DNA of 47,708 bases, counting the filler, from Jimgerdemannia flammicorona (Eukaryota): the NCBI GenBank assembly GCA_003990765.1. It is 2 parts of 2 records of this genome, joined end to end, with 100 filler letters (N's around TTAATTAATTAA, not from the genome) between each part and the next. Parts side by side here need not be neighbours in the genome. Positions count along the whole stretch, not along the records: positions 23,906 to 47,708 come from RBNJ01001063.1; 1 more part is not named here. One strand, given 5' to 3'. Position numbers and translations under genes: made by a program. How positions within the stretch are numbered: position 1 is the stretch's first letter; every line of letters starts with the position of its first letter. Positions 4,334-41,070 of the stretch are shown here, piece after piece. The notes under the pieces are model-generated. The model was not told where the DNA came from and did no database searches. It saw nothing but the letters and a program-made list of their open reading frames with translations.

Positions 4334-7300
4334 ATGGTCTCTGCAGAAGATATATAATAGCTTCAAGAACAAATAGTACAGTTGATATAGACCTATCAAG
4401 AGGTATAAGCAAAGATATAAATAATAGAGACAGCATTAGATTCTAAAGGTAAAAAACTAATAGTAGACCCCTCTATTAAAAATAAGAAGAACAATAGAAT
4501 AAGTGGTAATATTGAAACTTGGCTCTTTAATCTGAATTAGTACCTAGCAATAATAAAAGTATCAAATAAGGAGTTAGTTGCTTATAAAGGAGTACTACTG
4601 TAAGAAGATATAGCTATTTGATAGAAAACAAAAGTCTAAATAGCCAGATATAAAGAGAAAGACCTCCCAGACTGAGATAAGTTTCAAGATTAACTTATAT
4701 GGCAGATTAAGCCCATTAACTCAAAAAAGATAGCCAGAGACAAGTTGATATCTCTGTAATAAATAAGATCAGTCAAGATTTATACTACTATCTTCATGAG
4801 TATAGCCTTAGAGATTGATAATAATAGTAAAGCTGAAAAACTTAATAGATATATAAGAACTCAAGGATCATACTAGATAAGAAGTAGAACTATAAGATCT
4901 AAACACTATTGAAAAAGTAATATTAATTACTGACTATTTTTATATAATCTCTTTTGGAAGAAATTATTTCTCTAAATAACCTAAAAAGCCCTAACAAGGA
5001 TATATATATCTCAAAAATATTGTAGGTTCCACCCTAATAGATCTGAATACTATAACTAAATTAAGACTTATACTAGAGAAAAGGGAAAAATTATATAAAA
5101 GTAAAATCTACTTCTACTACTAAGAAGAAGGACATATTACTACAAAATGTCTAAAGAAGATCAAGAACAAAATAGAAAAAAGAAGGCCCTGATAATTACT
5201 AAGAAGAAAATAGTAATACCTATTACACAAATTGAAGAAATATATCTAATAGTTCAAAAACTACATCCTGATGCTATTTTACTAGAAGCAAAAACCTCAG
5301 AAGTAATTAAGTTAGATCTAGTGGTTATTCAAGATACAACAATCTCTGCAGAATAGTGACAACTCATAGTCACCAGGCTAGCAATATAGATACTTAAAGG
5401 ATATTATAGAAAAATTATATCATAATCAGATCCTAGTACTAAACATTACATTGACCTAGATATAGGGGTAATAGATCCAGACTATTGTGGAGAAATTAAA
5501 GCACTTCTGATCAATAATAGTATACAATTCTTCAAAATCAAGAAGTAAGATCAGGTTGTACAACTAATCCTAGAATAAGCCAAAGTATTAACAATTAAGG
5601 AAGTTATAACTCTAAAAGAAACTGCTTAGACTACTAAAGGATTTAGAAATACTGGAAGTAAATTGCTATAAAGGAAGAAAATATCTACAAAACTGCCTTC
5701 TAAATTTGCTATGGATATTTTGAGTTTCTGGTTATATCTTTTGGCTTAACTAATACTCCTGCAACCTTCTAGATACTGATGAATACTATCTTATACCTAT
5801 ATCTAGACAAATTTATTATTGTCTACATTGATGACATTCTAGTCTTCAGCAAAACCCTAGAAGAATATCTCAAATATCTTAAACTAGTACTACTGAAACT
5901 CTGAGAAAACTGACTCTTTATGAAACTCAGCAAATGTGAATTTCTCCTAAAGGAAATTTAATTCTTTAGATATATTATCACTCTCAATAGAATCAAAGTA
6001 GACCCCAGCAAAATCTCTGCAATCAAGGAATAACTCAGACTCAAGAAGTTGAAGGATCTCCAGTTATTCCTAAGACTAGCAAACTATTACTAGTGATTTT
6101 TTACCAACTTCACTAAGATTACTACTGCCCTTATCTATATAACTAAGTACAGTAAGAGAGAAGAATAGTCCTGGATCACAAAACAAGAAAAAGACTTCAA
6201 CAATCTTATAAATTGAGAACCTAAATAAGATATAACCTTTCAAGTACTGAAAGATATCTTGATAACCACTCTAGTACTTCAAGTGATAAATTCTGTCCTC
6301 TTATATAAAGTTACTACTGATGCCTCTGATCTAGCTCTTGGAGCAGTGCTCATATAAGAAGAATACTCTGTGCCCTATTATTCTTGTAAGTTCAATGATG
6401 CCAAAATTAATTATATAACCCATAAAAAGAAAATATTAGCCATTATAGACACTCTGATTAAATAGCAACCATACCTCAAAGAAGTATATTTCACTATTTT
6501 AACAGATCATAAATTATTAGTCAACATCAAGACCCAGACCACTTTTTCCTAAAAGTAAGCCAGATAGATGAAAGTTTTCACTAATTTTGACTATGAAATC
6601 TAGTATCACTCTGGTAAGGAGAATATTATTACTAATATAATTTCTAGACCACTAATTGAAGAGGTTATCCAAACTCTCACCTTGGTTACCAACTCTATTA
6701 TAGAACAGATTATTACAGTATATACTGATGATAAAAAAGCCCAAGTACTCTGAAAAATTCTGAATAGTAATTATATTGACAAGTCTCCTGGTATTATCAA
6801 TACCAACTAAAGGACAATACTATCTACTACAAGAACAGATTGTATATTTCTAACAATTGAGATCTCCAAAGAACTATCCTATTCAAATATCATGATGCTC
6901 CTATAGCCAGATATTTAGGATTTGACAAATGCTATAAAGTTATTTCCCAAAACTTTTATTGGCCTCATATAGTAGATCAGCTAAAGATCTATATCACTTT
7001 CTGTAATATCTGCCAATATAATAAGTCTTCAATAATAGCAAAACCTAGTCTACTCCACTCTATCCCAGTACCATCTACTAATTGAGAATAAATCTTTATA
7101 GACTATCTCAGCAAACAGACTCATTTTGTACTAACTACTATCACTGCTATAGTACTAGACATAGCTATATAATATCTTCTACTATTATGGTCTTCCTAAG
7201 ATCATTATTAGTGACTGAGATCCAAAGTTCATCAACCACTTTTAGAAAGCTCTATATGTATACTTTGGAACAAAACTTATACTATCTATAGCTATTTACT

Positions 7301-8060
7301 CTAAAACTGATAGTCAAATTAAAAGAATAAACTAAACTCTAGAATAAATATTAAAGAACTATGTTTCCTATAGATAAGATGATTGATATAGACATCTTAC
7401 TGCAGTCAAGTTTATCTATAATAATAGTAAACAAGTCTCTCTGAGAATGACTCCATTCTTTATTAATATAGGACAAAATTCAAACACCCCTCTAATACTT
7501 ATTGGAATCACTAATGAATCCTCTACTACCAAAGTTATTGAAGAATTCCTGCTCTGAATACATAACTTAAGTCAGATTGCAATTAAGAATTTATCTTGAG
7601 CTCAAGAACAATAGTTATAGTATATCAATCAGCATTACTAAGGAGAAACTTTTGATATTAGAGAAAAAGTCCAAGAATATTAAGTTAACAACCTCAAGTA
7701 CAGACTATCTATAAAACTAAACAGTAATTTTATTGGACTATTTGAAGTCATTGCACAAGTCTCTCTAACTTTCTACAAATTGATACTATCAGATACTATT
7801 AATATTCACCCAGTCTTCAATGTCTAATATCTTAAGTAATAAAATGAAAATAATGATAAGTTATTTCTAAACCAAATCATAAAACCACCTGTACCTATCA
7901 TTATTAATAATCAAGAAGAATATGAAGTTGAACAAATCCTCAACAAATATAGCTATAAGAACTATCCAAAATATCTTATTGAATAGAAAGGTTATCTGAT
8001 CTATAATATAATATAAAAATCCAAAACTAACCTCTAGAATGTCATTGATCTAGTTTAAGA
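4334..8060 (+). pseudogene. pol: Decayed gag-pol of element E
   Basis: Knuckle remnant EEGHITTKC (~5125); dUTPase KLHPDAIL, DPDYCGEI and KGFRNTG (5250-5657); RT KTAF, FGLTN and VYIDDILVFS (5821); RH VTTDASD (6310); IN HDAPIA (6891); chromodomain EEYEVEQILN..YLIE*KGY (7915-7995). Confidence 0.85.
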
Positions 8061-11981: not shown

Positions 11982-13479
11982 TATAATGGTGACCCCAGAA
12001 TGATGACATCAGTATAGGAGACAGCCTTTTCTTGCAAGTCACCAGATCAGAGCACAAGAAGATTATACAGCATACAAGATGAGCAATGATGACCAACTGT
12101 GAGTCATTGCGACCACAATATAAGCATCCTGAAGAATATAAAAGAAGGATCAAGAAACTGCAGTAGCAGCAACCAACAAGACCCACCAATCCCAAAATAG
12201 CTCAAAGACTTACCACAAATGAAATGCCTCCACTTGCCAAACCTCAAGGTCAAGGAACCACCAAGGTACCTCAGTTGAAGAAAGGATGTTCCAAGACATC
12301 AGGAGAGCTATGAGGACCCACTCAAGAAGGACTCCTAGTGTTGACCTGGGTACTGCAGATCCCTATCATTATATTCTCTACTGTCATGAAATGGAAACAA
12401 GGATCACTATTACTACTGAATGCCTCCAAATATGGCAGGAGTATGAAATAGGAAACCTCCTCTGCCGGGAGTTCCCATAGGCCAGCCCTCAAGAGCTACA
12501 AGATCCCACTTCCATGGATATATACAAGACAAGAACAGCTAAGAAGATCCATCAGATCTTCAGGCATACACCATGGTCAATGCCCAACTTGGAGTATGTT
12601 AGAGTCTCAGATTTTAGAGACCTGTCATCCCACCATATCAATGCACTTGAAGCCAGAGTAGCTATAGAAGCCCAGTCCACTATCACCCTCAACAGTGATG
12701 AAGTAGAAGACTTCTGGCATCCCATCCTTTAGGACAACCCAGATTGGTATTCTAAGGCCCAAGCATCCAGATTAGACCTCCCCAAGACCCCATATTTGTT
12801 CCTTATTTTGTGGAAGAGAACCTCATAGATTAGAGAGCCTCCAATTTTCCCACCGAACGTGATGACATCATTGGTAATGACATCATCCCATGTGACATCG
12901 AAGCATGTGAAATGACGAATTCATGGACCTTATCTCCTTTGAAGATATCCTGACCTCTGATGACAAGGATGAAGCCCTCATGGTCCTGAACTTTCTGCTC
13001 TAAGTTCTTTATTATACTGAATAATACCAGTACCAGTATTTTGATGTAACACTGGATAATGCCAGTACTGGCATTCTAAGGTGATGCAAAATTATTCCAG
13101 CACTGATATTCTGATGTGATACTGAATTATACCAGCATCCTGAACCTGTACAACCATCAGTGCTGACCCTAGAACTTAGTAGTTTTAGTTATTGGAATTT
13201 ATATTTAGCTTTATATCTTAGCAACCATTGAATTATATTTTGTATAAATATTCCTCTTATTTTCTCTGAAATAAAGTCAGTTCCAGTTCACTTACATACA
13301 CTTCCTTGCAAGTAATCTAAGAGATAACAAGATAGTTAAAGATAAGAAGTTTGAGGACTATAAGACCTTGGGAAGGTACTCTAATAAGAACTTACTTATA
13401 ACAAACTTGAGTTAGTCTAAGAGATACACCTTAAAGAGAATCTGGTATATTTGAAGGACTTAGTGATCACTACATAACA
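11982..13479 (+). repeat. 5' LTR of copy B
   Basis: TATAATGG (decayed TGTAACGG)...TACATAACA; matches 18925-20446. Confidence 0.93.
12224..13003 (+). pseudogene. ORF-X in 5' LTR of copy B
   Basis: ORFs 12286-12480 and 12514-12732; small indels. Confidence 0.75.
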
Positions 13480-13499
13480 ACTTAGTGCCCATTGGCTAG
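13480..13499 (+). promoter_or_regulatory. Primer binding site of copy B
   Basis: ACTTAGTGCCCATTGGCTAG immediately after the LTR; decayed form of ACT-TGGTGCCCATTGGCTGG seen in copy D. Confidence 0.8.
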
Positions 13500-13599
13500 T
13501 GATTCAAGATAAATCTCCCACTTTCAAGCTAAAAAATGAACAACTCCCACAACAACTACCCTGACTACAAGAGTTACTACTGCAAGAATTCAAGATAAG

Positions 13600-16500
13600 A
13601 TAGAAATGCGCCCCCCCACATTCTATAGATATACATACTACTGAAGAGTCAATCCTGATCTTCATTGAAGACTTTGAACAATTCGCTGCCATATGAGCCC
13701 TTGGTATAGATGCTGAATTGGTTCTTCTACTAGTCAGCCTCAGAGGACCTGCCAGAGACAAGTTCAATATAGCCACCATTGCTGATACTGGTGCAGCCAA
13801 ACTTGCCAACATAAAGGCCTTCCTCAGAATAATATACTATACTGAAGAGATCAAGCAAGCTCTCAAGGATCAACTCAATACTATCTGCTAGAGACTTAGT
13901 GAAGATCTCAACTTATTCTATATCCAAATCTGCTACCAGATTGTCTTGGCTGGCTATGATGACCACCTTAAGGAACAAATAGCAGATTCAACCTTCCTCA
14001 AAGGAGTTCACCCTGAAATTACCCTAGTAATCTGGTCTACCTCAGCTACACTGACCCTTGATCAGAAAGTGGTCTTTATATAGAGATATTGAACTGCCAG
14101 ACACCCTATCAAACACTCAATGGAGAAAATAACTGGCATCAAGATGAAGCCATCAAAGCCAACTAGTATCATACCTATCACAGTTGTAAACAGACAAACA
14201 ACCCCACCTACTCCCAAGACAGCCAAAGCTGACCCAGTGGAAGAACTTGCCAAGCAGTTTGCTGAGATAACTGCATATCTTGGTGATGTTGTTAGAGAAG
14301 TCTAAAGTACCAACAGGAGACCAGTGCAGAGATTTTCAGCCACTATAGAAGAACACAATATCATATGCTTCAGATGTGGAGAAGAAGGCCACTATGCAAA
14401 GAGTTGAATGACTGAAATAAGATGCAAAGCCCAACCAAGAAATACTAGCAGAACCAGAGAACAAATTAATGCAGTAGTCATCAAGGAGATTGGTGATACT
14501 GATGATGAAGAATACTATGAGGAGCTTGAATTCTACCCTGCTACTGAAGGTACCAGAACCCGGTCCAAGCCCTATGATAAGAAGAACAACAGCAAGTCAG
14601 TTAGAAGACCAAAGAAGACCCCAGCTGTCACTATTCAAAGCAAGACCCAACTCAAGAAGATTGATCAAGACATGGAGTTAGATGAAGCTGTCTGCCAAAT
14701 TATTGAAGGCACTACTCCAGTCTCAGGAGAAAGCAAAAGCAAGAAGGAACAGAAGCTGCACAAGACCAAGATCCATCAGTATGATATCTATAAGAATCTT
14801 AAGGAACAGAAGGTCAATGCTACCTTTGGACAACTAGTCGAAGTCCCTGCCATCAGACAGCAGTTGAGAGTAGGACTTGCAACTACTGCCAAGAATCAAG
14901 AGTACAAGATTGTAGAAGCTTACAATGCACAGGAAGAATCCAAGAACTCAGGTGAAGAATCTGAAGACCAGCGCAAGACATCAGCCTATACCCCATGTCA
15001 GATCAAAGACTGTATCTTTAATACTATCATTGATACTGGTGCTGGAGGATATCTCATGAGCAAGAAGGCAATTGACTGCCTAGGCTGGGACATTGAAGAG
15101 TCCACCAAGATGGTCTATGTTACAGCAGATGGTACATGAGCTACCCTCCTTAGCAAAATCTGAGAAGTTCCCATCAAGATAAGAGGAGCTACCATTCCAG
15201 TAGATGTGATTGTCACAAGTGCCACCAACTATGACATCCTCATTAGCAACCAATGGCTTCATAAGGCCAAGGCCATCATTAACCTCAATACTCAGAAGAT
15301 ACAGATCAACTATAGAGGAAGAAAGGTATAAGTCTCTATCAATGTCTACAAGGGAGTCCTACCAGACATGGAGAAAAGAGATGAAGAGGACACAGAGGTC
15401 TTCATGCACTTGGTGAATAAGAACAAGAATCAGACATCACTCTCAAGGTCAAGAAGTTTCACCCTGAAGCCAAGATCCCAGAATACAAGACTGAAGGAAC
15501 CATAGGAATGGACCTTGCCAGCATTCAAGATGCTACTCTCAAACCCCAGACCACCACTCTACTTGGTACTGGAATTGGAGTCAAGCTGCCAGAGAACCAT
15601 GCTGGAATCATCAAGACCAGGAGCAGTCTGACCAAAAGTGAAATCTCAGTTGAAGGAGGAGTAATTGACTCTGATTATACTGGTGAGATCTTCCTCATAG
15701 TCAGAAATTACAACCACACCACCCCCTTTGAAGTCAAGAAGCATGACAGGATTGGCCAGATGCTGATCTACAAAATCAAGAAACCCAAGATCATAGAAGC
15801 CATCAAACTCATCAAGACCAAGAGAGGAGAATAAGGCTTTGGATCTACTGGAAGAGGAGCCTATACTACTACCAAGATTACTGAACTTGAGTATAAGAAA
15901 GACAAGGATCAGAACAAGCATACATATATCATTGGAGAAAACTTTCCCCTAGAGGAACAACTTCTTAAGATCCTGTACCAGAATGAAGGAGTACTTGCTA
16001 CAGACTTTAGGAATATCCATAATTAAGAACCCAAGTACTATCATGAAGTTGACACTGGTGATACCAAGCCCATCTATCAGAAAGCCAGACTCATACCACC
16101 TGCCTACAGAGAGTGGCTGCAAGCAGAACTCAAGGAAATGGAAGAAGCCAGAATCATCAAGCAAGCTATCAGTCCCTGGGCCTCACTCATTGTCCTTGCT
16201 CCATAGAAAGGAAGCAAGCTTAGAGAGTTTGCACCAAGACTCTGCATTGACTACAGGAAGCTTAATGCTATTACTAAGAAGGATAGACAGCCCTTGCCAA
16301 ATATTCAAGAAATCCTTACCACTCTTGGAAGTGAAGCCAAATACTACACCACCTTAGATCTGTTCTCAGGCTTCCATCAGATTGGTCTCACTCAGATGCC
16401 AGTGAGAAATCAGCCTTCATCACACCTGATGCCACCTATATCTACCTACAAATGCCATTTGGAATATGCAATATCCCAGCAAGTTTCTAGTAAATAATGA

Positions 16501-17371
16501 ATAGAGTCTTCAGCAATAAGATTGGAAAATGGCTCTTTGTCTATGTTGATGATGTGATCATCTTCAGCAACACTGTATGGGAATATGTCAATTACATACA
16601 GTTAGCCCTCAAGAAGCTCAAAGAGTATGACCTTTATATCAAGCTCAAGAAATGCAAGTTTGCAGCCCAGGAAATCACCTACCTAGGACACCTCATCAAC
16701 CAGATCAGAATCCACACAGACCTATGAAGATTGAGACTGTTGCAGCCTACCCAAGACCCAGGACAATCACAGAAGTCTATGCCTTTCTTGGACTGGCCAG
16801 CTACTACAGAAGGTTCATCAAAGGATACTTCAGCATTGCAGCACCTATCTATGAGCTACTGAATAAGGAAACCAAATTTGAATGGATCAAGGAGTGCCAA
16901 GAAACCTTCAATGAACTCAAGACCAGGTTAACCCAAGCACCTATCCTCAGAAGACCAGATTGGAACCTAGAATTCATCCTGCAGACAGATGCGAGTACTA
17001 TAGAACTTGGAGCAGTTCTAGCTCAGAAGAAAGATGGACATAAATATGTCATCTCCTATGCAAGCTAAGGTACCTGTAGAGCAGAACAGAACTATGAGTC
17101 ATGCAAGCTTGAATACTTAGCAGTAGTTTGGGCAGTAGACAAGTTCCACTACTACCTAGCTGGAAAATACTTTACCATTCAAACAGACCATTCTGCTCTT
17201 GCCTGACTATTCCACACCCTGAACCTCAAAGAAATATATGCCAGATGGATCTACAGACTACAAGAGTATGACTGTACTATCAAGCACCACTCAGGAAAGA
17301 CCAACACCAATACTGATGCACTCTCAAGGATACCCCAAAACACCTCCATCAAGACTATTCAACATAAATAA
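13600..17371 (+). pseudogene. pol: gag-PR-dUTPase-RT-RNase H polyprotein pseudogene (copy B)
   Basis: CFRCGEEGH; protease IIDTGA; dUTPase RSSL and GGVIDSDYTGEI; RT YVDD; RH QTDAS and DALSR. Confidence 0.93.
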
Positions 17372-18597
17372 AGAGCTATACTATGGGTTAATTAGCTATC
17401 TTGGACAGCAGAAGATGCCCAACCACCTCGAACTCTGGACAATCACCTTCATCAACTAGACTTGGAAACAGTTTGAACTAGACAACACTACACTTAGAAA
17501 AGGAGGAAAGCTAATAATACCTGAATACAAGAAGTATCAAGTAATGAAGGAAGTACATGAGCAAGGACACTTAGGAGGAATCAACATATATGACAAAGCA
17601 AGAAGAACTATGCGGTGGCCCAAGATGGAAGAAGATCTGTACCAATTTGTCAAAGGGTGTGATAAGTGCCAAAAACAGAAACAAGATCAATAAGATCAGG
17701 CATCTGAGTCATCAAGAATTGAGCCTATCCCCTTCCACCACATTGCAATGGATATCATTGGACCACTACCAGTAATACTATCAGGAAACTGCTATATTAT
17801 AGTTATTATAGACCTCTTCACCAAATAGATAGAGGCAGGAGTACTACAAGAAGCCAATGCTCTCTCTATAGCTGACTTCCTGTACTGAGAAATCATCTGC
17901 CACTACAAGACACCAAAGCAAATCACAACAGACCACAGAATGGAATTTGTCAATAGATTCTATGAGATAATGTATCAGAAATACAAGATCCAGCACATCA
18001 AGACCACTGCATACCATCCTCAAGGAAATGGACAGACAGAGAGAACCAATAAGACCCTCAAGAACATCCTAGCAAAGATCTCAGAGACATATGAGAATTG
18101 GAATAACTATCTCCCAACTGCCCTCTCTGTCCTATGAGACATATAGTCACAGAGCACATACTTTACCCCAAGAGAGCTGCTCTTCAGAGAAGAAGATTCT
18201 GATGGAACCTCAGCCACAAATCTAGACCTAACTTGGAGATAGGTTGATGCAGAAATCTGAAGACTACACCAAATCAGGAAGAAGGCTGAAGATTACATCA
18301 CCAAGTTATAAGCACTGATAAGGAAGAATGTAGAAAAGAATCATAAGGCCCTAGAACCCATCTGAATCAGAGAAAAGATTCTACTGTATTGAAATATAAT
18401 AGAAACCTCATGGTTGTGAAAACTGGAGCCCAAATGAGAAAGACCCTTCTATATACAAGATATCAAAAGAACCACCTTCTGGCTTAGAAAAATCTCAGGG
18501 ACCATACTGCCTACTACAGTACATAGGAACAGACTCAAGAAGTACCACGAATCTATATAAGAGAAGCAAAATGTAATGGCCACCCATGAGATTCTAG
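17364..18597 (+). pseudogene. int: Integrase pseudogene in a separate frame (copy B)
   Basis: (M)NKELYYGL..., HEQGHLG..CDKC, IAMDIIGP, TDHRMEF, GQTERTN, KLEPK(W). Confidence 0.9.
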
Positions 18598-23805: not shown

Positions 23806-23905
23806 NNNNNNNNNNNNNNNNNNNNNNNNNNNNNNNNNNNNNNNNNNNNTTAATTAATTAANNNNNNNNNNNNNNNNNNNNNNNNNNNNNNNNNNNNNNN
23901 NNNNN
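23806..23905. other. Assembly gap with artificial six-frame-stop linker TTAATTAATTAA
   Basis: 44 N, then TTAATTAATTAA (23850-23861), then 44 N; total exactly 100. Confidence 0.95.
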
Positions 23906-24984: not shown

Positions 24985-25448
24985 TATAATATGTATAGTA
25001 GATACTTAATCTTAGAAGTATGTCAGATTTCTGTATCTTGAAAACTTGATCTTCTTTAACTCTATAGAGTTCTCAGAATATAAGAGTAGATAAGTTCAAA
25101 GTATATCTATCTACAGGCTTACTAGTTCCTTTGTTTTTTCTTTACTTTAAACTATTTTGATCTGAGGTTTATTTACTCTAAAACTAGGAATATTTATATA
25201 AGTTTGCTAGCTATAATGTGGCTAAGTTATGAGTCACTTTTCATAAGTATTAATCCTTGATATTTTTTAAATCTTTGATGATTATTAAGACTTTAACATC
25301 TGTGAATTTTTGACATTTGTGAAGAGTTTAACATTTATGAAATAACTGCTATTTGTAAGACTATACTATATCAGAAATTGGGTTCAGATACTATAATCAA
25401 ATGTCTAATTCCTCTAATTCTTATTCCTAATTCAGATTAACTATTACA
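24985..25448 (-). repeat. Solo LTR related to family 2, TSD ATAT
   Basis: Reverse complement matches both ends of the D LTR (e.g. GTCAGATTTCTGTATCTTGAAAACTTGA); ATAT at 24981-24984 and 25449-25452. Confidence 0.75.
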
Positions 25449-25468
25449 ATATATACTATAATATAAAT

Positions 25469-27604
25469 TGTAACAGTGACCCCAGAATGATAACATCAGC
25501 ACAGGAGACAGTCTTTCCTTGCAAGTTACCAGATTAGAGTATAAAAAGATTATATAGTATACAAGATGAGCAATAATGACCAACTGTGAGTCATTATGAC
25601 TACAGTATAATATCTTGAGGAATATAAAAGAAGGATCAAAGAACCACAATAGCAGCAACCAACAAGACTTACTAATCTCAAAATACATAGCTCAAAGACT
25701 TACTATAAACAAAATGCCTGCTGCTTGCCAAACCTCAAGGTCAAGGAACTACTAAGGTATCTCAGTTGAAGAAAGGATGTTCCAAGACATCAGAAGATGA
25801 GAATCTACTCAAGAAGGACTCCTAGTATTAACCAGGGTACTAGTGACCCTTATCACTATATCCTCTACTACCATGAAATGGAAACAAGAATCACCATTGC
25901 TACCAAATGTCTCCAAATGTGGCAGAAGTATGAAATAGGAAACCTCTTCTGTTGGGAGTTTCTACAGGCCAGCACTCAAGAGCTACAAGATATGAACCAC
26001 CTTCATAGATATATGTGAAATAAGAACAGTTAAGAAGATCCATCAGATCTTCAGATATGTACCATAATCAATCTCCAACTTGGAGTATGTTAGAGTCTCA
26101 GATTTCAGAAACCTGTCATCCTGCCATATCAATGCACTAGAAGCCAGGGTGACTACAGAAGCCCAGTCCACTATCACTCTCAATAGTGATGAAGTAGAAG
26201 ACTTTTGATATTCCATCCTTCAGAATAACTCAGACCAATTTCTATAAGGATTGATCTCAGTATTCCAAGGTCCAAGTATCCAGGTTAGACCCCTATAAGA
26301 TCCCACATTTGTCTCTTATTTTGTGGAAGAGAATCTCATAGATTGGAGAGCCCCTGACCTCCCCACCACTGAACATAATGATATCATTGGCAATGATATC
26401 ATCCTATGCAATATCAAAGCATGCGAAATGCATAAAGATAAATTCACAGACCTCATCTCTTTCAAAGACATCCTGACCTCTGATGATGAAGATAAAGCCC
26501 CCATGATCCTGAACATTCTGCTCTAAGTTTCTTGTTATACTGGATAATACCAACACTGGTATTCTGAGATACATAACACTGGATAGTACTCCAAATGAGT
26601 CAATCCAGATAGGATTCGGATGGATTCAAATTCCATCTGGATCAACTCAAATTGGATTCAAATCCCATCTGGATCAACTCAGATTGGATTCGAATCCCAT
26701 CTGGATGGATTCGAATCAACCATTGTTTTGATTTCCAAATTGGACAATTAAATGTTTACATCAATAACTCGATGAATAATCATCTAAATTTGATGATCTT
26801 GGTGTCATTTGAAAGCCCTTAATAAGGTCTTTCTAATGATATCAAGAACATTAACATCGGATTACGTGTTGCTGAGATATTAAGGAAAACAATCTATTTG
26901 ACGAAATTTCCAAAATCGGCGATTCAGACAGTTTCCTTCATAACTCAGCAACGCATGATCCGATTTAAATATTCTTAATATTATTAGATAGGCCTTATTA
27001 AGGGCTTTCAAATGACATCAAGATCATCAAATTTGGATGATTATTCATTGAGTTATTGATGTAAACATTTAATTATCTAATTTGGAAATCAAAACAATGG
27101 TTGATTTGAATCCATCCAGATGGGATTCAATCCAAATCAATCCGAATCCAATCTGGATTAAATTGACTCATTAGGAGCACTAATACTGGATAATGCCAGT
27201 ACTGGTATTCTGATGTAATACTGAATTATACCAGCATTCTGAACCTGTACAACTATTAGTGCCGACTCTGGAACTTAGTAGTTTTTCCTGACCTGGTATT
27301 TTATTTTAATTATTGGAATTTATATTTAGCTTTATATCTTAGCAACCATTGAATTATATTTTATATAAACACTCCTCTTATTTCCTCTGAAATAAAGTCA
27401 GTTCCTCTCAGTACAATATATACACTTCCTTATAAGTAATCTAAGAGATAACAAGATAGTTTAAAGATAAGAAGTTTGAGGACTATAAGATCTTAGGAAG
27501 GCACTTCAATAAGAACTTGCTTATAACAAACTTGAGTTAGTCTAAGAGATATACTTTGAAGAGAATCTGGCATATTTGAAGAACTCAGCAACCACTATGT
27601 AACA
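25469..27604 (+). repeat. 5' LTR of copy C (contains ORF-X 25714-26526 and a MITE insertion)
   Basis: TGTAACAG...ATGTAACA followed by a decayed PBS. Confidence 0.92.
26584..27182. mobile_element. hAT-type MITE, 599 bp, almost wholly palindromic
   Basis: TIRs TAGTACTCCAAATGAGTCAAT / ATTGACTCATTAGGAGCACTA; 8-bp TSD ACACTGGA (26576-26583) / ATACTGGA (27183-27190); absent from the other four family 1 LTRs. Confidence 0.85.
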
Positions 27605-27723
27605 ACTTAGTGTCTATTGACTGATGATTGAAGATAAATCTCTCACTTTTAAGCTGAAAAACAAACAATCCTACAACAACTACCCTGACTACAAGAGTCA
27701 CCTCTGTAAGAATTCAAGACAAG

Positions 27724-30164
27724 ATAGAAATATGTCCCCCCACATTCTATGGATATACTACTAAAGAGTCAATTCTGACCTTCATTGATGACTTTGAACA
27801 ATTTGCCATCATATGAGCTCTTAGTGTAGATATACAATTGGCCCTTCTACCAGTCAGCCTCAGAGGACCTGTCAGAGATAAGTTCAATATAGCTACTATT
27901 GCTGATGCTGGTACAGCCAAACTTGCCAACATGAAGGCCTTCCTCAGAACAATATATTATACTGAAGAGATCAAGCAAGCTCTCAAGGATCAACTCAATA
28001 TTATCTGCCAGAGACTTAGTGAAGATCCCAACTCATTCTATATCTGAATCTATTACCAGATTGTCTTGGCTGGCTATAATGATACCCTTAAGGAACAAAT
28101 AGTAGATTCAATCTTTCTCAAAGGAGTTTACTCTGAAATTGCCCTAGCAATCTGGTCTACCCCAGCTGCACTAACCCTTGATCAGAAAGTGGTCTTTGTA
28201 TAGAGATATTGGACTGCCAGACACTCTGCTGAACACTTAATAGAGAAAATAACTAGCATCAAGATAGAGCCATCAAAGCCAACTGGTATCATACCTACTA
28301 TAGTTATAAACAGACAACCAACCCCACCTATCCCCAAGGCAGCCAAAGCTGACCCAGTAGAGGAACTCACCAAGCAGTTTGCTGAGATGACTGCATATCT
28401 TAGTGATATTGTTAGAGAAGTCCAAAGCACCAACAGGAGACCAGTGCAGAGATTTACAGCTGTTACAAAAGAATGCAATATCATATGTTTCAGATGTGGA
28501 GAAGAAGGCCACTATGCAAAGAATTGCATAACTGAAACAAGATGCAAGGCCCAACCAAGCAATGCTAGCAGAACCAGAGAACAAACCAATATAGTAGTCA
28601 TTGAGGAGATTGGTGATACTGATGATGAAGAATACTATGAAGAGCTCAAATTCTACCCTGCTACTGAAGATACCAGAACCCAGTCCAAGCCCTATGACAG
28701 GAAGAGCAACAGCAAGCCAGTTGGAAGACCAAAGAAGACCCCAGCTGTCACTATTCAAAGTAAGACCCAACCCAAGGAGATTGATCAAGATATGGAGTTA
28801 GATAAAACTGTCTGCCAAATCATTGAAGACACTACTCCAGTCTCAGGAGAAAGTGAAAGCAAGAAGAAACAGAAACTGCATAAGACCAAGATCCACCAGT
28901 ATGATATCTACAAGAATCTCAAGGAACAGAAGGTCAATGCTACCTTTGGACAGCTAGCTGAAGTCCCTGCCTTCAGACAGCAGTTGAGAGTAGGACTTGC
29001 AACTACTGCTAAGAATCAAGAATACAAGATTGTAGAAGCTCACAATGTACAGGAAGAATACAAAAACTCAGATGAAGAATCTGAAGACCAGTGCAAGACA
29101 TCAGCCTATACCCTATGTCAGATCGAAGATTATATCTTTGATGCCATCATTGATATCAGTGCTAGAGAATATCTCATAAGCAAGAAGGTAATTGACCACC
29201 TAGGTTGGGACATTGAAGAGTCTATCAAGATGGTCTATATTACAGCAGATGGTATATGAGCTACCCCCCTTGGCAAAATCCAAGAAGTCCCCATCAAGAT
29301 AGGAGGAGCTACCATTCCAGTAGATGTGATTGTTACAAGTGCCACCAACTATGACATCCTCATTGGCAACCAATGGCTTCACAAGGCTAAGGCCATCATT
29401 GACCTCAATGCCCAGAAGATGCAGATCAACTATAGAGGAAGAAAGGTACAAGTCTCTATCAATGTCCACAAAGAAGTCCTACCAGATATAGAGGAAGGAG
29501 ATGAAGAGGACACAGAGGTCTTTATGTATTCAGTAAACAAAAACAAGAACAAGACACCTAAGCTCACAGATGAGCAGTAGTATAACAAGATCATTGATAG
29601 CTATATCCCTTAAGGAAGATACCCCCATGATACTAGAATGTACTGCTCTGAACACCTGAATGACTGCTGGTTCTGTATCAGTGAAGTCAGGAAAATCTGC
29701 CAACAGAAACATGAGCAAGAAGCTGCCAAAGCAAAAAGAAAAGCTGAAGATGACCAGCCCCCAGAGCTTCAGGCTGACAGTGATGATGAGGAGGAATAAG
29801 AATCAGACATCACCCTCAAGGTCAAGAAGTTTCACCCTGAAGCCAAGATCCCAGAATATAAAACTGAAGGAGCCATAGGAATAGACCTTGTCAGTATTCA
29901 AGATACTACCCTTAAACCACAGACCACCACTCTACTTGATACTGGAATTGGAGTCAAGCTGCCAGAAAATCATGCCAGAATTATCAAGATCAGGAGCAGT
30001 CTGGCCAAAAGCAAAATCTCAGTTGAAGGAGGAGTAATTGACCCTGATTACACTGGTGAGATCTTCCTCATAATCAGGAATCACAACCCCACTACCTTAT
30101 TCAAAGTCAAGAAGTATAACAGAATTAGCCATATGCTGATTCATGAAATCAAGAAGCCTAAGAT
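27724..30164 (+). pseudogene. gag: gag-PR-Cys/His domain-dUTPase pseudogene (copy C), truncated by deletion
   Basis: ORF 28387-29259 with CFRCGEEGHYAKNC; protease YDILIGNQWL; dUTPase GGVIDPDYTGEI. Confidence 0.9.
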
Positions 30165-31134
30165 GGAAGAAAACCTGTGCTAATTTGTCAAAGGGTATGA
30201 TAAGTGCCAAAAACAGAAACAAGATCAGCAAGACCAGGTATCCAGATCATCAAGAATTGAGCCTATTCCCTTCCACCACATCCCAATAGATATCATTGGG
30301 CCACTACCAGTAATACTATCAGGAAACCACTATATTATAGTTATTGTAGACCTCTTCACCAAATGGATAGAGGTAGGAGTATTACAAGAAGCCAATGCTC
30401 TCTCTATAGCTGACTTCCTGCACTGAGAAATTATCTGCCACTACAAGACACCAAGGCAAATCACAACAGACCATGGCACAGAATTTGTCAATAGATTCCA
30501 TGAGATAATATATCAGAAATACAAGATCCAGCACATCAATACTACTACATATCATCTTCAAGAAAATAGACAGATAGAGAGAACCAACAAGACCCTCAAG
30601 AACATTCTGGTAAAGATCTCAGAGACATACGAGAATTGGGATAACTACCTCCCAACTACCCTCTCTATTCTACAAGACATATGGTTACAGAGCACACACT
30701 TTACTCCAAGAGAACTGCTCTTTGGAGAAGAAGATTCTGATGGAACCTCAGCTACAAATCTAGACCTAACTTGGAGATGGATTGATGTAGAAATCCAGAG
30801 ACTACACTAAATCAGAAAGAAGACTGAAGATTATATCATCAAGTTACAAGCGCTGATAAGAAAGAATATGGAAAAGAATCACAAGATTCTAAAACTCATC
30901 TGAATTGGAGAAAAGGTCCTACTGTATCGAAATATGGTAGAAGCCTCATGGTTGTGAAAACTGGAGCCCAAATGGGAAGAACCCTTCTATATATAAGATA
31001 TCAAGAGAACTACTTTCTGGCTTAGAAAAATCTCAGGGACTATATTGCCTACCACAGTACATAGGAACAGACTCAAGAAATATCACGAACCTATACAAGA
31101 GAAGCAAAATATATGACTGCCCACAAGATTCTAG
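30157..31134 (+). pseudogene. int: Integrase remainder (copy C)
   Basis: DIIGPLP, VDLFTKWIE, TDHGTEF, KLEPKWEEPF. Confidence 0.9.
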
Positions 31135-33113: not shown

Positions 33114-34337
33114 ATTAATTTATAGTTATTACTAATATACTAGTCTTAAAGAAAGAAAGTAAGTTATTCAAAACTCTATATATATTATAAAAAACTCAAT
33201 AAAATAACCAAAAAGAGCCAATAGTCCTTATCATTAGCAATATCTTAGTTATACTAGAAAATAAAGCTTAATACTATATTATCTTAAATCTCTACTTAGA
33301 ATTCTATCAAATCAGACTTATTAAAGAAATTAGTAAAAGATCAATTTTTAATATCTTAATAAAATCTATATTTATCTATAAATACTATTCAGAATATATA
33401 AATAAACTTAAGAAAATTTATACTAAATAAACTATATAATTGTGAGTCTATAATATAACTATTATACTACTTAAGATTAACTAATATCAATATAAATACT
33501 TTCTTATAAATACTCTAAAGAATATATATCTAGTAAAAATAATATAAATAAGAAGCTTTACTATAGGATTATTACTTATCTGAGATAGTATAAGATATCT
33601 CAAAATCTGAAAAAAATAAATATAAATAATTATTAATAAAACTTAGAAATAATGAAGAAATATTTAAGAAAGAAAAACTACTAGTTATATCTAAATATAA
33701 AAAAGAATAAGAAATAAAGTCAGTATAGAGAAACTTGCTAAGAAGTTTACTGAAATAACTCTCTCTCTAAGAGATATAGTGAAGAAAATCAGAAGAAGAG
33801 ATTGTTGCCTAGTTCAGAAGTTTGCTACTACTATAAACAAAAAGAAAGAAATCTGCTATACTTGTGGAGAAGAAGGCCACTACTTCTATGAATGTATAAG
33901 TGAGACTAAGTATAAGACTCAGTTAAATAATGTTATTAAAAACTACAAACAGATCAATACTATTATCTTTGAAGAGATTGGAGATTCAGAGAAAGAGAAA
34001 TAATAAGAAGCTTATCTAGCCCTCATCTCTAAGAAAAATATCAATTAGAAATTCTATAAGAGGCCATTAGAAAGATCCAAGAAGAAAGTAGTAGAATATT
34101 CTATAGAAGAACAGATAGAAGTATCTATAGAAATTAAAGAAATAGATCAAGATATAGAACTTAAACAAGTAGTTGAAGATATCATCTGAGGCAATACTTT
34201 TGCTAGTAAAGGAGAAAAGGAGAAGAAGCTGTAAAATAGTAAGACCTTCAAGTATATGTAATATCTTCAAGAATCTCAGCCAGCAAAAAGTCAATGCAGC
34301 CTTTGGATAGTTAACAGAAATCTCTATCTTTAGATAG
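32947..34337 (+). pseudogene. Very AT-rich relics of a family-2-like element: RT N-terminus (to ~33400), RH/IN junction (33400-33715), gag C-terminus (33720-34337)
   Basis: Colinear with the corresponding parts of D; CYTCGEEGHYFYEC knuckle in ORF 33779-34003. Confidence 0.75.
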
Positions 34338-34813
34338 TGTGACGGTACAGCCAGATTTGGAAGAAGAAAATAGGGAATAGACACTTGATCGCACTCATTC
34401 CCAAAGTAGTATAGCATTATAGTTAGCAGTCCTCGATTTCGACATTGTCTAAATTCTTAGACATTGTCTAAATTTTAGACATTATCCAAATCAGATACCC
34501 CGATTTAGTATAGCATTTAGACATTGTCCAAATGTTTTGACAAAGTCCAAATGACTCATTTATTACTTAGCCACCCTCTCATAGCTAGCAAACTTGTATA
34601 AATAACCCAGTATCTTCGAGTGAATAAACCTCAGATTGAAATAGTTCAAAGCAAAGAGATAGCAAAGGAACTAGTAAGTCTGTGGGCAGATACACTTCAA
34701 ACTCACCCACCCTCCCCTGCCACTTCAAGAGACTCTGCGAGAGTCAGAACAGTCAAGTTTTCAAGATACAGAAATCTGACGTACTTTCAAGAGTAAGTGT
34801 CTGCTATGTTACA
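34338..34813 (+). repeat. 5' LTR of D
   Basis: TGTGACGG...ATGTTACA; matches 40595-41070. Confidence 0.96.
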
Positions 34814-34927: not shown

Positions 34928-37900
34928 ATGGATATGAGACTGCCAGTATTCCATGGATATACCTCAGATGAATTGATCATCACCTTCATTGATGATTTCG
35001 AGCAGTATGCTGCCGTAAGGACTCTGACAGCAGCACAGCAAGTAGCCCTCATGCCCTTCAGCCTATGAGGCCCTGCCAGAGCAGCATTCACAGCCGCAAC
35101 CTATGCAGGAAATGATGCTGATGCCATACTGATGGCATAGAAGATCTGGCTCTGAAACACATATTACACAGACGAGATCAAGCAAGCCCTGAAGGATCAG
35201 CTCAATACAACATGCCAAGGAATGAGCAAGGATCCAAACACATTCTATACCAGAATTCGATATCAGATAATCCTTGCAGATTATGCTGCTGCTACCCGAG
35301 ATCAAGTAGCTAAAGCAACCTTCATGAAAGGAGTCTATCCAGAAATAGCCATGGCTATCTGCTCATCACCAGTGATTCTAGATCTGCTACAGAGGGTCAC
35401 CTATGCTCAGCGATACTGGATAGCCAGACACCCACAAGACCATATAATGGAGAGAGTTACAGGAGTCAGAATCGAGGCACCCAAGGCAACCAGTGTGATC
35501 TCCACCACAATGATCAATCGAAACACACCTCAGCCAAAAGCTACCAAGCAGCAAAAGAACAGCAACCCTATGGAGGAACTTGCCAAAAGGTTTGCTGAAA
35601 TGACTGCCCACCTGGGAGATGTGGTAAAGGAAATCTGAGGAAGAGATCGCCACCCTGTTCAGAAGTTTACCGCCACCTCAGACAAGAAGAAAGGTACCTG
35701 CTACAGCTGCGGAGAAGAAGGCCACTACTCCTATGAATGTATGAGTGAAACCAAATGCAAGGCTCAACCAAGCAATGCTACATGAAACAAGGAGCAGGCC
35801 AATATAATTACCTTTGAGGAGATCGGAGATTCTGACGAAGAAGAATGGGAGGCCTATCCTGCTCAGACCACCAAGAAGGATGTTCACAAAGAACCCTACA
35901 AGAGACCGCCAGGAAGACCCAAGAAGAACCCAGTGGAAAAGCAGATGGAAACTGCCACAGAAAGTCAAGCCGAAGAGATGGACCAGGATATCGAGCTGGA
36001 GCAAGTAGTTCAAGATATCATCTGAGGAACCACTCCAGCCAGTAAAGGAGAAAAAGGAAAGAAGCTTTGCAAGACCAAGACCTTCAAGTATGATATCTTC
36101 AAGGATCTCAGTCAACAAAAGGTCAATACAACCTTTGGTCAGCTTGCAGAAATCCCAACATTCAGACAGCAAATGAGGTTTGGACTAGCCGAAATAACCA
36201 AGGAACAAGGATGGAAGATAACCGAGGCCAATAATGTTCAAGAGGACTCAGGAGAAGAAAGTGAGGACAATCGCAAAACCTCTGCTTATGCAACATACCA
36301 AATTGAGGATTGAGTCTTCGAGGCCATCATTGATACAGGAGCAGGAGGATGTCTCCTCAGTAAGAAAGCAGCAGACCGCCTAGGCTGGGATGTGGAAGAA
36401 GCAACTAAGCTAGTATTCGTCACAGCCGATGGCACAAGAGCCACACCTCTGGGAAAGATCTGAGATGTTCCCATCAAGATCAGAGGAGCAACAATCCCAG
36501 TGGATGTAATCATAACCAATGCCACCAACTATGACATCCTCATCGGCAATCAATGGCTTCACAAAGCCAAAGCGGTAATTGATCTTAATGCCCAGAAGAT
36601 GCAAATCACCTACAGGGGACAGAAGATACGAATTCCCATCAACGTCAACAAAGGAGTCCTGCCCGATATGGAGGAAGAAGAGAGCGAGCAAGAGGAAGCT
36701 TATATGGTGACTACCACAAAGAAGAAGAAAGTTGGATGGATGAGTGAAGAAGAATGGTGCAAGAAGATCGCAGAAGGCTACACCCCACAAGGAGTCTGTC
36801 CTCATGGAATCAAGATGTACTATATGGAGCATATCAATGATTGCTACCAGTGCACCATCGGAACCAGGAAGATCTACCAGGAAAGAAGCCAGAAAGCTCT
36901 CAAAAAACAGACCATGGAAGAAGAGAAGGAGGAAGATGATGAACCACCAGCCCTCCTAGAGGGCAGTGATGATGAAGAAGAAATCAAGGTCAAGATTTGA
37001 AAGATCCACCCTGACGCAGTCTTGCCAGAATACAAGTCAGAAAATACAGCCAGAATGGACATCACTACAGTAGAAGAAACTGTACTCGAACCCCAGACAA
37101 CCACCCTACTCGCAACTGGACTGGAGATGACCATCCCAAAGGATCATGTCGGGATTCTCAAGACAAGAAGCAGCCTAGCTAGAAGCGAAATCACAATTGA
37201 AGGAGGAGTCATTGATTCAGACTATACTGGAGAAATTCTACTCATTGCTAGGAACCACAATCCTACAATTCCATTCCCAGTCAAGAAGAAGGACCGATTG
37301 GCACAGATATTGATCTTCCCAATCATACAGCCAAGGATCATAGAAGTCAAGAATCTGGAGGAAACGAAAAGAGGAAAGAAAGGATTCGGATCCACAGGAA
37401 GAGGAGTATTCGCCAGCACCAAGATCACTGAACTCAAGCATAAGAAGGAGGAAAACACAAGCAAGCACAGTTACACAATTGGAGATGAATTCCCACTCAA
37501 GGAGGAACTCAAGAAAATACTCCACAAATTCAAGGATGTCCTTGCCACGGATTTCAAGGATATCAAGAGAAAGACCCCACACTACTATCACGAAGTAGAT
37601 ACTGGAGACACCAAACCAATTTATCAGAAAGCAAGACCTGTCCCACCAGCCTACCAAGAATGGCTCAGAGAAGAAATCAAACAGATGGAAGAAGCCGGTA
37701 TCATCAAAGAAGCCAGCAGCCCCTGGTCTTCACCAGTTGTACTAGCCCCGAAAAAAGGAAGCAAACCTGGAAAATTTGCCCCAAGACTCTGTGTCAACTA
37801 CAGAAAGCTCAATGCAGTCACCAAGAAGGATCGCCAACCACTGCCGCTCATCAGTGACATCCTTATAACACTAGGAGACGAAGCACAGTACTACAGCACC

Positions 37901-38920
37901 TTGGACTTATACTCAGGATTCCACCAAATCGGACTCACAGAAGTGGCAAGTGAAAAGTCAGCCTTCATCACCCCAGACGGAACCTACATCTACCTATGAA
38001 TGCCATTCGGAATGTGCAATGCACCAGCAAGCTTTCAGTGAATGATGAACAAAATCTTCTGCTATGACATGGGAAGATGGATGATGGTCTATGTCGATGA
38101 TGTAATCATCTACAGCAAGACGGCTGAGGAACATCTGCAGCACATACAGCAGATAATGGAGAGACTAAGACAACATGGCCTTTATATCAAACCCAAGAAG
38201 TGCAAGTTTGCGGAAATCGATATCTCCTATCTTGGCCATATCATCAATCGAGATGGAACACATACAGACCCCCTCAAGATACAAGTAGTGGCAGCATACC
38301 CAAGGCCCACTACTGTCACAGAAGCCCAAGCCTTCATGGGACTTGCCTCCTACTATCGCAGATTCATTAGAGGATTCTCCAACATTGCAGGTCCAATCTA
38401 CGAACTCAACAAAAAGGATACCAAGTTCCAGTGGACCGGCAGATAACAAAAAGCATTTGACGAACTCAAGGTCAGACTAACTCAGGCACCCATCCTCAGA
38501 TGACCCAATTGGACCCAAGAATTTATCCTTCAGACGGATGCAAGTGCACAAGGACTAGGAGCTGTCCTGGCTCAAAAAGAAGACAAAAAAGAGTATATTA
38601 TTGCATATCTTAGCCGTGAAACCCAAGGAGCTGAAAAAGAATATGAGTCCTACAAGTTGGAATGCCTTGCAGTCATCTGGGCTGTGGAAAAGTTCCACTA
38701 CTATCTGGCCGGAAGACACTTCACCATCCAGATGGACCACTCAGCTCTCACCTGGCTACTGACAACCAGACAACCCAAAGGAATCTATGCCAGATGGATA
38801 ATGAAGTTACAAGCCTATGATGTAACCATCATGCACCACCCTGGAAGAACAAATTCCAATGCAGATGCTCTCTCACGGACACCTCGAACTACCTCCAACC
38901 AACAAATCAATCATGAATAA
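34928..38920 (+). pseudogene. pol: gag-PR-Cys/His domain-dUTPase-RT-RNase H single-frame polyprotein with nonsense mutations
   Basis: ORFs 35222, 36500, 37022, 38042 and 38657 share one frame; CYSCGEEGHYSYEC, IIDTGA, dUTPase motifs RSSLA, GGVIDSDYTGEI, DRLAQ, RGKKGFGSTG; YVDD; QTDAS; NADALSR. Confidence 0.96.
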
Positions 38921-40103
38921 GGAGCTCTACTACGGAATTATCACATATCTGGGACAGTGAAAGATGCCCCAACATCTGGAAGAATGGACACAAACGATTA
39001 TCAACAGGACATGGAAACAATTTGAAACCGACAGAGAAACACTGAAGAAAGGAAAACTACTAGTCATACCAGAACACAAGAAGGAGCAAGCAATGAAATT
39101 GGTACACGAACTTGGCCATCTAGGAGGAACAAATACATATGACAAGGCAAGGAGAACAATATGGTGGCCAGGGATAGAGGAAGATATCAGACAATTCGTC
39201 AAGACCTGTGACAAATGCCAGAAACAGAAACAAGACCAACGAAATCAAGCCCCAGGATCAGCACACATAGAACCAGTACCATTTGCCCACATTGCAATAG
39301 ATGTAATCAGCCCCCTACCCTTGACTCTGACTGGCAACCGATACATCATTGTCATCGTAGACCTTTTTACGAAATGGATAGAAGCAGGACCCCTTATGGA
39401 AGCCAATGCATAGTCAATCACTGATTTCTTCCACAAGGAAATCATCTGCCGGTTCAAGACCCCAACACAAGTAACTACAGATAGAGGAACCGAATTCGTG
39501 AACCAGTTCTTCGAGGTTCTCTACAAGAAGTACAAGATCCAGCACATTCAGACCACAGCCTATCACCTTCAAGGAAATGGACAAGAAGAAAGGACCAATA
39601 AGACCCTCAAGAATGTTATCACCAAGATCTGTGATAACTACGAGAACTGAGATCACTATCTGCTAATAGCACTATCTGCTCTCTGGGATATCCGATCACA
39701 AAGCACCCACTTTACCCCTCGAGAAATGCTGTTCAGAGAAGAATGTTCTCAAGGAACCCTATCATCCAATGGAGATACTGTATGGAAACATATGGACATG
39801 GAAATACGGAGACTACACCAAATCAGGAAGAAGGCTGAGGATTACATAATGAAGGCGCAGACACTACAACGGAGGAATGCGGAAAAGACCCACAAACCCT
39901 TGGAGATCATCAAGATAGGAGACAAAGTTCTGGTGTATCGGAATATGGTTGAAGCTTCATGGTCACGAAAACTGGAGCCCAAGTGGGAAGGACCTTACCT
40001 TGTGCAAGATATAAAAGGGACCACCTTTTGGCTATGAAAACCCTCAGGCACAATAATCCCCACTACCATTCACCAAAACCAACTCAAGAAATATCATAGC
40101 TAG
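38913..40103 (+). pseudogene. int: Integrase as a separate ORF (HHCC, DDE, GPY/F; no chromodomain)
   Basis: ATG 38913 MNKELYYGII; HELGH..CDKC; IAIDV; TDRGTEF; GQEERTN; KWEGPY. The true stop may be 40103 or 40139. Confidence 0.92.
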
Positions 40104-40119
40104 TAACAAAAGTACCGCG

Positions 40120-40557
40120 ATGGCACTCAAGATCACTAGTGCTGCCCAAAGAGCCATTGAAAGACAATGGCACACCACCGAGCCTCCGACCATAGAGCCA
40201 TTCTATGAGGATATTCAGAGTATTGTGCAGACTCATCTCTCTCGGATCTCATGCTTTAGAGACTATCAATATCGCGCAGAATTCCAAGAGTACTTCAAGC
40301 TTGGACAGGTGCTCAATCAGGATCCATCAAAGACCAAGGAAGACTGGATTGCCGAGTGTCAACTCTCTCACTCACAGATCACTATTGCTAAAAGGATCCA
40401 CAAGTTATTCCGAGAAGATGAAGCAGCGATAGACCACCTTAGAGGAGTAACCCCTACCGACTTCGAGAAAGTGAGGAGACATCATTGGGAAACAGTTATG
40501 CAGCAAATCGCACATTACAAGACCATACAGACCATTGAAGCCTGGGAGTTTGAATAG
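40120..40557 (+). CDS. Intact 145-aa accessory protein ORF-X between integrase and PPT; function unknown
   Basis: ATG-to-TAG ORF without stops; aligns by eye with the LTR ORFs of family 1 and element E. Confidence 0.8.
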   Translation: MALKITSAAQRAIERQWHTTEPPTIEPFYEDIQSIVQTHLSRISCFRDYQYRAEFQEYFKLGQVLNQDPSKTKEDWIAECQLSHSQITIAKRIHKLFREDEAAIDHLRGVTPTDFEKVRRHHWETVMQQIAHYKTIQTIEAWEFE

Positions 40558-40594: not shown

Positions 40595-41070
40595 TGTGAC
40601 AGTACAGCCAGATTTGGAAGAAGGAAATAGGGAATAGACACTTGATCGCACCCATTCCCAAAGTAGTATAGCATTATAGTTAGCAGTCCTCGATTTTGAC
40701 ATTGTCTAATTTCTTGGACATTGTCTAAATTTTAGACATTATCCAAATCGAATACTCCGATTCAGTACAGCATTTAGACATTGTCCAAATGTTTCGACAA
40801 AGTCCAAATGACTCATTTATTACTTAGCCACCCTCTCATAGCTAGCAAAACTTGTATAAATAACCCAGTATCTTCGAGTGAATAAACCTCAGATCGAAAT
40901 AGTTCAAAGCAAAGAGATAGCAAAGGAACTAGTAAGCCTGCGGGCAGATATACTTCGAACTCACCCACCCTCCCCTGCCACTTCAAGAGACTCTGCGAGA
41001 GTCAGAACAGTCAAGTTTCAAGATACAGAAATCCAATGTACTTTCAAGAGTAAGCGTCCGCTATGTTACA
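40595..41070 (+). repeat. 3' LTR of D
   Basis: TGTGACAG...ATGTTACA. Confidence 0.96.

Follow-up and report, generated by a model that had tools for sequence, protein, structure and literature searches.

Ty3/Gypsy LTR retrotransposons with integrase encoded as a separate cistron at the stop codon of the Gag-to-RNase H frame

The window analyzed here, a 47,708-nucleotide stretch of DNA from Jimgerdemannia flammicorona, is eukaryotic DNA crowded with decayed Ty3/Gypsy LTR retrotransposons. One of these, which we call element D, comprises the following features:

34338..34813, plus strand: 5' LTR of element D (TGTGAC...GTTACA), pairing with 40595-41070 at 95% identity over 477 nt by self-blastn
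34928..38920, plus strand: ORF1 of D, coding for Gag (with a CCHC knuckle), protease, dUTPase, reverse transcriptase (RT) and RNase H in one frame from the gag ATG at 34928 to the TAA at 38918-38920, by frame listing and Pfam
38913..38920, plus strand: D junction, ATGAATAA, an 8-nt overlap of the integrase ATG (38913-38915) and the ORF1 TAA (38918-38920), with integrase in the +1 frame
38913..40106, plus strand: ORF2 of D, integrase, with an N-terminal MNKELYY segment, an H2C2 zinc finger, the rve core and an SH3-like end
40120..40557, plus strand: ORF3 of D, 145 aa from its first ATG, beginning 16-19 nt past the integrase stop and weakly conserved in relatives
40595..41070, plus strand: 3' LTR of D by self-blastn, with the purine tract AGGAGAAAG just 5' of it

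The paired LTRs flank the coding region and end in TG...CA, as in Ty3/Gypsy elements, and a PBS-like TGGTGCCC lies directly 3' of the 5' LTR. The Pfam domains RVP_2, dUTPase, RVT_1 and RT_RNaseH are found in the upstream frame, those of the +1 frame being Integrase_H2C2, rve and SH3_Tf2-1. The Ty3/Gypsy domain order (protease, RT, RNase H, integrase, with Gypsy-type RT_RNaseH and Integrase_H2C2) was found by Pfam in D and in the related loci L008, L025, L055, L011 and L061. By its LTRs, domain content and domain order, D is thus a Ty3/Gypsy (Metaviridae) LTR retrotransposon. A fused integrase is an expression feature and not a classification criterion, so this membership stands even where integrase is encoded separately. 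The dUTPase domain of D lies between protease and RT (window 37001-37400; Pfam E=3e-26), a position that the available parts of two papers already describe for fungal and rotifer Gypsy elements (PMC2864245, PMC6431247).

One tblastn segment spans 36464-38917 of D and the frame listing likewise runs without a frame change over 34928-38920, in agreement with the original prediction that D carries no other frameshift in gag-pol; the element still has many nonsense mutations. ORF1 is dead, with 13 premature in-frame stops (11 TGA, 1 TAG, 1 TAA), and the integrase frame has four, namely TGA 38958, TAG 39411, TGA 39648 and TGA 40035. Over window 35636-38501, nine of ten premature stops of D are TGA where arginine is expected (e.g., YL[TGA]MPFG and FQ[TGA]MMN), a pattern which indicates CGA>TGA decay at CpG. 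Sister copies of D, found as contigs of four public runs, X1-X4 (X1, X3 and X4 being DNA by guess, X2 of a kind not on record, and none on record as RNA), have C where D has T, so that CGA replaces TGA at 37997 and CAG replaces TAG at 40101. The D stops at these two positions are therefore products of C>T decay, and the true stop of the D integrase is the TAA at 40104.

At the end of ORF1, the DALSR motif of RNase H (GAT GCT CTC TCA CGG) is followed by 13 codons and then the TAA at 38918-38920. The start region reads C-ATG-AAT-AA, with the ATG at 38913-38915 in the +1 frame. Two further copies in the window have retained this junction:

13477..18558, plus strand: copy B, a diverged member of the D family with several extra frameshifts and stops
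17364..17371, plus strand: junction of copy B, ATAAATAA, with ATA (17364-17366) in the place of the ATG and the ORF1 TAA at 17369-17371
33544..33551, plus strand: junction of an AT-rich relic, ATAAATAA, with ATA at 33544-33546 and TAA at 33549-33551

Copy B is 65-70% identical to D in DNA and 67% identical in integrase, and the spacing of 13 codons from DALSR to TAA is identical in D, B and the relic. The original claim from the sequence was that, in these three copies, integrase occupies an ORF of its own with its ATG overlapping the stop of pol; the coordinates proved exact in each. The further claim that the ATA of B and the relic is an ATG lost by G>A decay gains from L015, which of the relatives with an open integrase frame (415 aa in its case) is the nearest to D (integrase 76% identical): its junction reads CAACATGAATAAGG, with the same 13 codons after DALSR, and this retention of ATG at a D-type junction marks the ATA of the other two copies as G>A decay. 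All three window copies with the junction are dead.

The sister contigs (records 7, 16 and 30) run through the D junction without a gap, and the sole indel listed against D within 4.2 kb is at 38155. A joint in an X3 contig, 38799 -> 38912, which skips 112 nt, would fuse the pol and integrase frames. This single low-support metagenome contig has no intron ends (the skipped piece ends in AA..AT) and cuts away the end of RNase H; the joint is probably a deletion variant or an artefact, and we set it aside. The window also holds a third copy of the D family (27595-31085), in which an internal deletion fuses the dUTPase region to the integrase core (D 37288 -> 39193) and the junction is gone. Extremely AT-rich Gypsy relics at 5234-7900 and 33330-33730 are full of TAA and TAG and look like products of RIP-type or deep C>T/G>A decay; the first of these is of a different lineage, in which a long linker joins RNase H and integrase, and is read in two frames. 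An LTR-like fragment (24995-25230, minus strand) lies near two runs of 44 N, masked or gap, at 23806-23849 and 23862-23905.

A search with the D integrase (stops given as X) against 1.84 billion representative proteins placed among its 150 best matches 15 proteins of 233-576 aa that start at the same methionine. These are ORF-type gene calls from metagenome assemblies with N-termini like MN..LYY or MD..LY, the best match of the whole search, at 46% identity, being one of them, and the start methionine is invariant in an 11-sequence alignment (A1). One database protein, P0035, seemed at first sight an in-frame RNase H-integrase fusion ('...ALSR...MNSETY'); comparison with locus L006 identifies its N-terminal extension as an integrase-frame reading of the RNase H end, and it was rejected as a fusion.

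With alignment A1 we gathered 80 metagenome loci, 42 of which include the end of RNase H together with the start of integrase. The set was queried with stand-alone integrases and is thereby enriched for the split architecture, and near-duplicates (L001/L002, L007/L008, L041/L043, L072/L080) bring the number of independent elements somewhat below 42. RNase H and integrase share one open frame in none of the 42 loci. Integrase is thus the C-terminal part of Pol neither in these loci nor in any of the three window copies. The distance between the integrase ATG and the ORF1 stop is 8 nt or less in 29 of the 42, the two forming ATGA, TAATG/TGATG or ATGAATAA/G. Measured from ATG to stop, the offsets are -8 (2 loci), -7 (3), -5 (3: L004, L011 and L015, which have the junction geometry of D), -1 or ATGA (11), +2 or TAATG/TGATG (7), +4 (2) and +5 (1); the remaining 13 loci have spacers of 37-1603 nt between the ORF1 stop and the integrase ATG. 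As a control, 1102 positions were sampled inside integrase genes, and from only 15% of them does an alternative frame run into a stop within 8 nt. These random integrase positions replaced a third-frame control at the junction itself, which was dropped as confounded since ATGAAT already holds a TGA.

The split is also a property of elements with uninterrupted genes. The ORF1 of L008 (455..5242) has at least 1595 aa, counted from its first ATG and open further upstream, and contains zf-CCHC, protease, dUTPase, RVT_1 and RNase H; its 418-aa integrase (5239..6495) overlaps ORF1 by ATGA, and an ORF3 of 230 aa follows (6467..7159). In L055, the corresponding ORFs have 1606, 438 and 131 aa, the last at 7103-7498. 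The integrase ORF is full-length (395-543 aa) in no fewer than 24 of the 42 loci, several of which also have an uninterrupted ORF1 of 1400-1750 aa; L011 is not fully intact, having an integrase frameshift near its C-terminus. Throughout the clade, ORF1 holds Gag, protease, dUTPase or NUDIX, RT and RNase H in a single frame without a gag/pol frameshift. The original prediction had held the junction unlikely to be decay and had named younger intact copies with RNase H and integrase in one continuous frame as the finding that would speak against it. No such copy is among the 42 loci, where open-frame relatives retain the split. There is accordingly little doubt that D belongs to a deep clade of elements with a split polyprotein gene: ORF1 runs from Gag to RNase H, integrase forms a cistron apart that opens with a conserved methionine on or beside the ORF1 stop, and an overlapping ORF3 comes after it.

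A quick maximum-likelihood tree of 60 integrases (28 of the loci, D, 12 stand-alone database proteins and 19 integrase parts of fused Pol) unites all 41 split rows in one clade with an SH-aLRT of 99, the 12 database rows among them being classed as split by gene calls alone, without DNA. One fused row falls within this clade and the other 18 lie outside it. The exception, P0112, sits on a long branch and reads ...DYLSR, then 19 residues, then MDILYYHAIKDYL, in one frame; either it was fused secondarily or the row is misplaced. Sister elements can differ in their junctions while stop and start stay adjacent, as in L007 (-1) and L009 (+2) or in L019 (+2) and L024 (+5).

These observations bear on the idea that the split is an inherited defect, the copies having come from a broken master mobilized by the trans-acting integrase of intact fused elements. 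The dead state of all three window copies and the one fused relative, P0112, would fit such a history. Against it, the split has been kept across a clade whose integrases are 35-76% identical, and the long open integrase and ORF1 frames of the loci counted above have been kept with it; a defect would not preserve a start codon and an open 400-aa frame for so long. We regard this explanation as scarcely credible.

As to the hosts, near-identical pieces of D occur in runs from soil and root metagenomes and from one coded organism. The ESM Atlas clusters nearest to a stand-alone integrase consist of proteins of 392-417 aa and have Mucoromycota as their most recorded phylum, a record that exists for only 10-11 members per cluster. 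These leads suggest that the D clade probably resides in Mucoromycota-type fungi.

Relative to ORF1, 24 of the 42 loci have integrase in frame -1, 16 in frame +1 and 2 in frame 0, with stops and a spacer intervening between RNase H and integrase in the two same-frame loci. This variety is central to the question of whether a programmed +1 frameshift at GAA-TAA-G (AAA-TAA-A in B) could yield a Gag-Pol-integrase fusion, with the ATG being incidental. Ty1, Ty3, antizyme and RF2 provide known cases of a +1 shift at a stop or slow codon, and integrase stands in +1 at a 0-frame stop in each of D, B, the relic, L004, L011 and L015. For the clade as a whole, the mixed direction of the offset and the invariant methionine speak against such a signal. 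The integrase frame is moreover closed by a stop within 30 nt before the ATG in about half of the loci, and by one with a single codon between it and the ATG in L028 (TGA TCA ATG), L029 (TGA ACA ATG) and L037 (TAA ATA ATG). Nor is any slippery P-site codon conserved, and the AAA-TAA-A of B derives by G>A decay from GAA-TAA-G, as it stands in L015. Frameshifting, one of three mechanisms originally proposed, is thus very improbable as the source of integrase; among the others, a separate RNA and termination-reinitiation, it is the latter that fits best.

Under termination-reinitiation, some of the ribosomes finishing ORF1 would stay on the full-length RNA and reinitiate at the adjacent AUG. The product would be a free integrase at a low, sub-stoichiometric level, the step that sets the ratio of Gag to enzyme would lie between RNase H and integrase and not between gag and pol, and particle or cDNA would have to acquire the free integrase in trans. 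What favors this reading is that the adjacency of stop and start persists in the classical AUGA and UAAUG/UGAUG forms. The AUG overlaps the upstream stop or lies within a few nucleotides of it, as is typical of stop-restart, in 29 of 42 loci (-8 to +5 nt, with D at -5). Against it stands the length of ORF1, which is very great for such a restart; reinitiation after an ORF of 1400-1750 codons normally requires a cis element. The calicivirus-type TGGGA motif is not enriched, occurring at 3 of 28 junctions versus about 2.6 of 23 control windows, and the 90 nt upstream of the ATG have no excess folding energy (mean z -0.05, n=26); the downstream flank likewise gives no signal (mean MFE z -0.46, n=26). 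Simple coupling is also harder to square with the 13 loci that have long spacers, in one of which, L037, a whole ORF with NUDIX and deoxynucleoside kinase (dNK) domains intervenes.

These same facts lend themselves to another explanation, that integrase is a separate cistron with its own RNA or entry site—a subgenomic RNA made by splicing, like those for retroviral env and foamy-virus pol, a transcript from an internal promoter, or ribosome entry at an internal site—and that the tight spacing reflects compaction only. Spliced RNAs for downstream genes are common among retroelements, the long spacers hold extra ORFs between RNase H and integrase in some of the 13 loci, and the TGGGA and folding analyses came out without a reinitiation-promoting motif or structure. 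Such an origin leaves unexplained why, though linker sequence and frame vary, 29 of 42 loci keep the ORF1 stop and the ATG no more than 8 nt apart, and D has no AG dinucleotide within 35 nt 5' of its ATG. We consider an RNA of its own unlikely, albeit a serious contender. For termination-reinitiation on the genomic RNA as the source of integrase, the junctions put the chances at about even, and the two parts taken together, a split clade and reinitiation, make up the overall explanation that we favor by a little better than an even chance.

Many elements of the clade have an ORF3 of 130-230 aa downstream of integrase, with 24-46% identity among members; that of D matches those of L025, L026 and L014. 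Its ATG mostly lies between 56 nt before and 10 nt after the integrase stop, the junction being ATGA in L035 and L055 and TGAAAATG in L058 and L061. In L035 the feature is:

2441-2908 of locus L035: ORF3

Neither in D nor in its relatives does ORF3 match a Pfam family, and the ESM Atlas gave no usable match. Other modules vary too: the NUDIX and dNK ORF of L037 (4315-5625) is separate and lies between RNase H and integrase, and in L061 a NUDIX domain takes the place of the dUTPase at ORF1 residues 811-914. With such an arrangement of genes, the elements of the clade look polycistronic. A bolder and more speculative extension, which we hold to be less probable than reinitiation at the integrase start alone, is that the clade is truly polycistronic and mainly fungal. 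Three to four cistrons (Gag-PR-RT-RH, sometimes NUDIX/dNK, integrase and ORF3) would then be serially reinitiated from one genomic RNA, with the efficiency of reinitiation replacing the gag/pol frameshift as the control of dosage and integrase reaching the cDNA in trans, perhaps aided by ORF3.

In the textbook view of LTR retrotransposons and retroviruses, integrase is released by proteolysis of Gag-Pol, which also explains how it enters the particle. If the reading given here is true, a natural LTR element supplies its integrase in trans, and the route of the enzyme to the particle or cDNA becomes testable; the control of stoichiometry may be sited at the RNase H/integrase boundary and not at gag/pol. 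If reinitiation is confirmed, a cellular eukaryotic element would provide an instance of it downstream of a very long ORF, and its compact junctions lend themselves to reporter assays. Should serial reinitiation and a trans-acting integrase both hold, the recruitment route would be one not described for any LTR element. For annotation, the consequence is that transposable-element pipelines expecting a fused Pol will call such elements broken or take them for two fragments.

Stop-restart translation has precedents, fungal viruses among them. Victoriviruses are reported to use it at AUGA. The available part of one paper describes it at UAAUG in the hypovirus CHV1, a fungal virus (PMC2699510), and the available part of a 2023 review of reinitiation covers the UAAUG stop-restart of the non-LTR retrotransposon SART1 and the TURBS of caliciviruses (PMC10275272). 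In that part of the review, SART1 is the only retrotransposon named, and the examples include no LTR element or integrase. As a candidate for stop-restart, the D clade resembles these systems in its AUGA, UAAUG/UGAUG and short-overlap junctions after a long upstream ORF and in its probably fungal hosts, fungi being known to support stop-restart. It departs from them in its far longer upstream ORF (about 1500 codons), in the long spacers of some members and in that no TURBS-like motif or stable upstream structure was detected at its junctions. A full-text literature search, with subscription papers and Repbase reports lying outside its range, turned up no LTR retrotransposon in which integrase forms a cistron coupled by stop and start to the ORF before it.

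Other retroelements offer partial parallels. Foamy retroviruses, hepadnaviruses and caulimoviruses translate their replication enzymes apart from the capsid protein, and as would be the case in the D clade, an enzyme unfused to Gag needs recruitment to the particle or nucleic acid in trans. In those viruses the whole polymerase is separate, whereas in the D clade integrase alone is, with protease, RT and RNase H still on Gag. The +1 frameshifting of Ty1 and Ty3 is matched by D and its nearest relatives in the +1 relation at a 0-frame stop; the Ty1/Ty3 signal, however, lies between gag and pol, needs no start codon and is conserved in direction, whereas the direction varies in the D clade and the methionine is invariant.

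Among Ty3/Gypsy elements, D shares with the canonical ones (Ty3, Tf1 and the fungal chromoviruses) its LTRs, the CCHC gag, the order protease-RT-RNase H-integrase and the H2C2/rve/SH3-like integrase. With the dUTPase-bearing fungal elements, as far as the available parts of their descriptions go (PMC2864245, PMC6431247), it shares the dUTPase between protease and RT. Unlike canonical Ty3/Gypsy elements, the D clade has integrase as its own cistron, Gag to RNase H in a single frame and an ORF3 after integrase. It is the stop-start-coupled integrase cistron that is the part differing from known Ty3/Gypsy elements.
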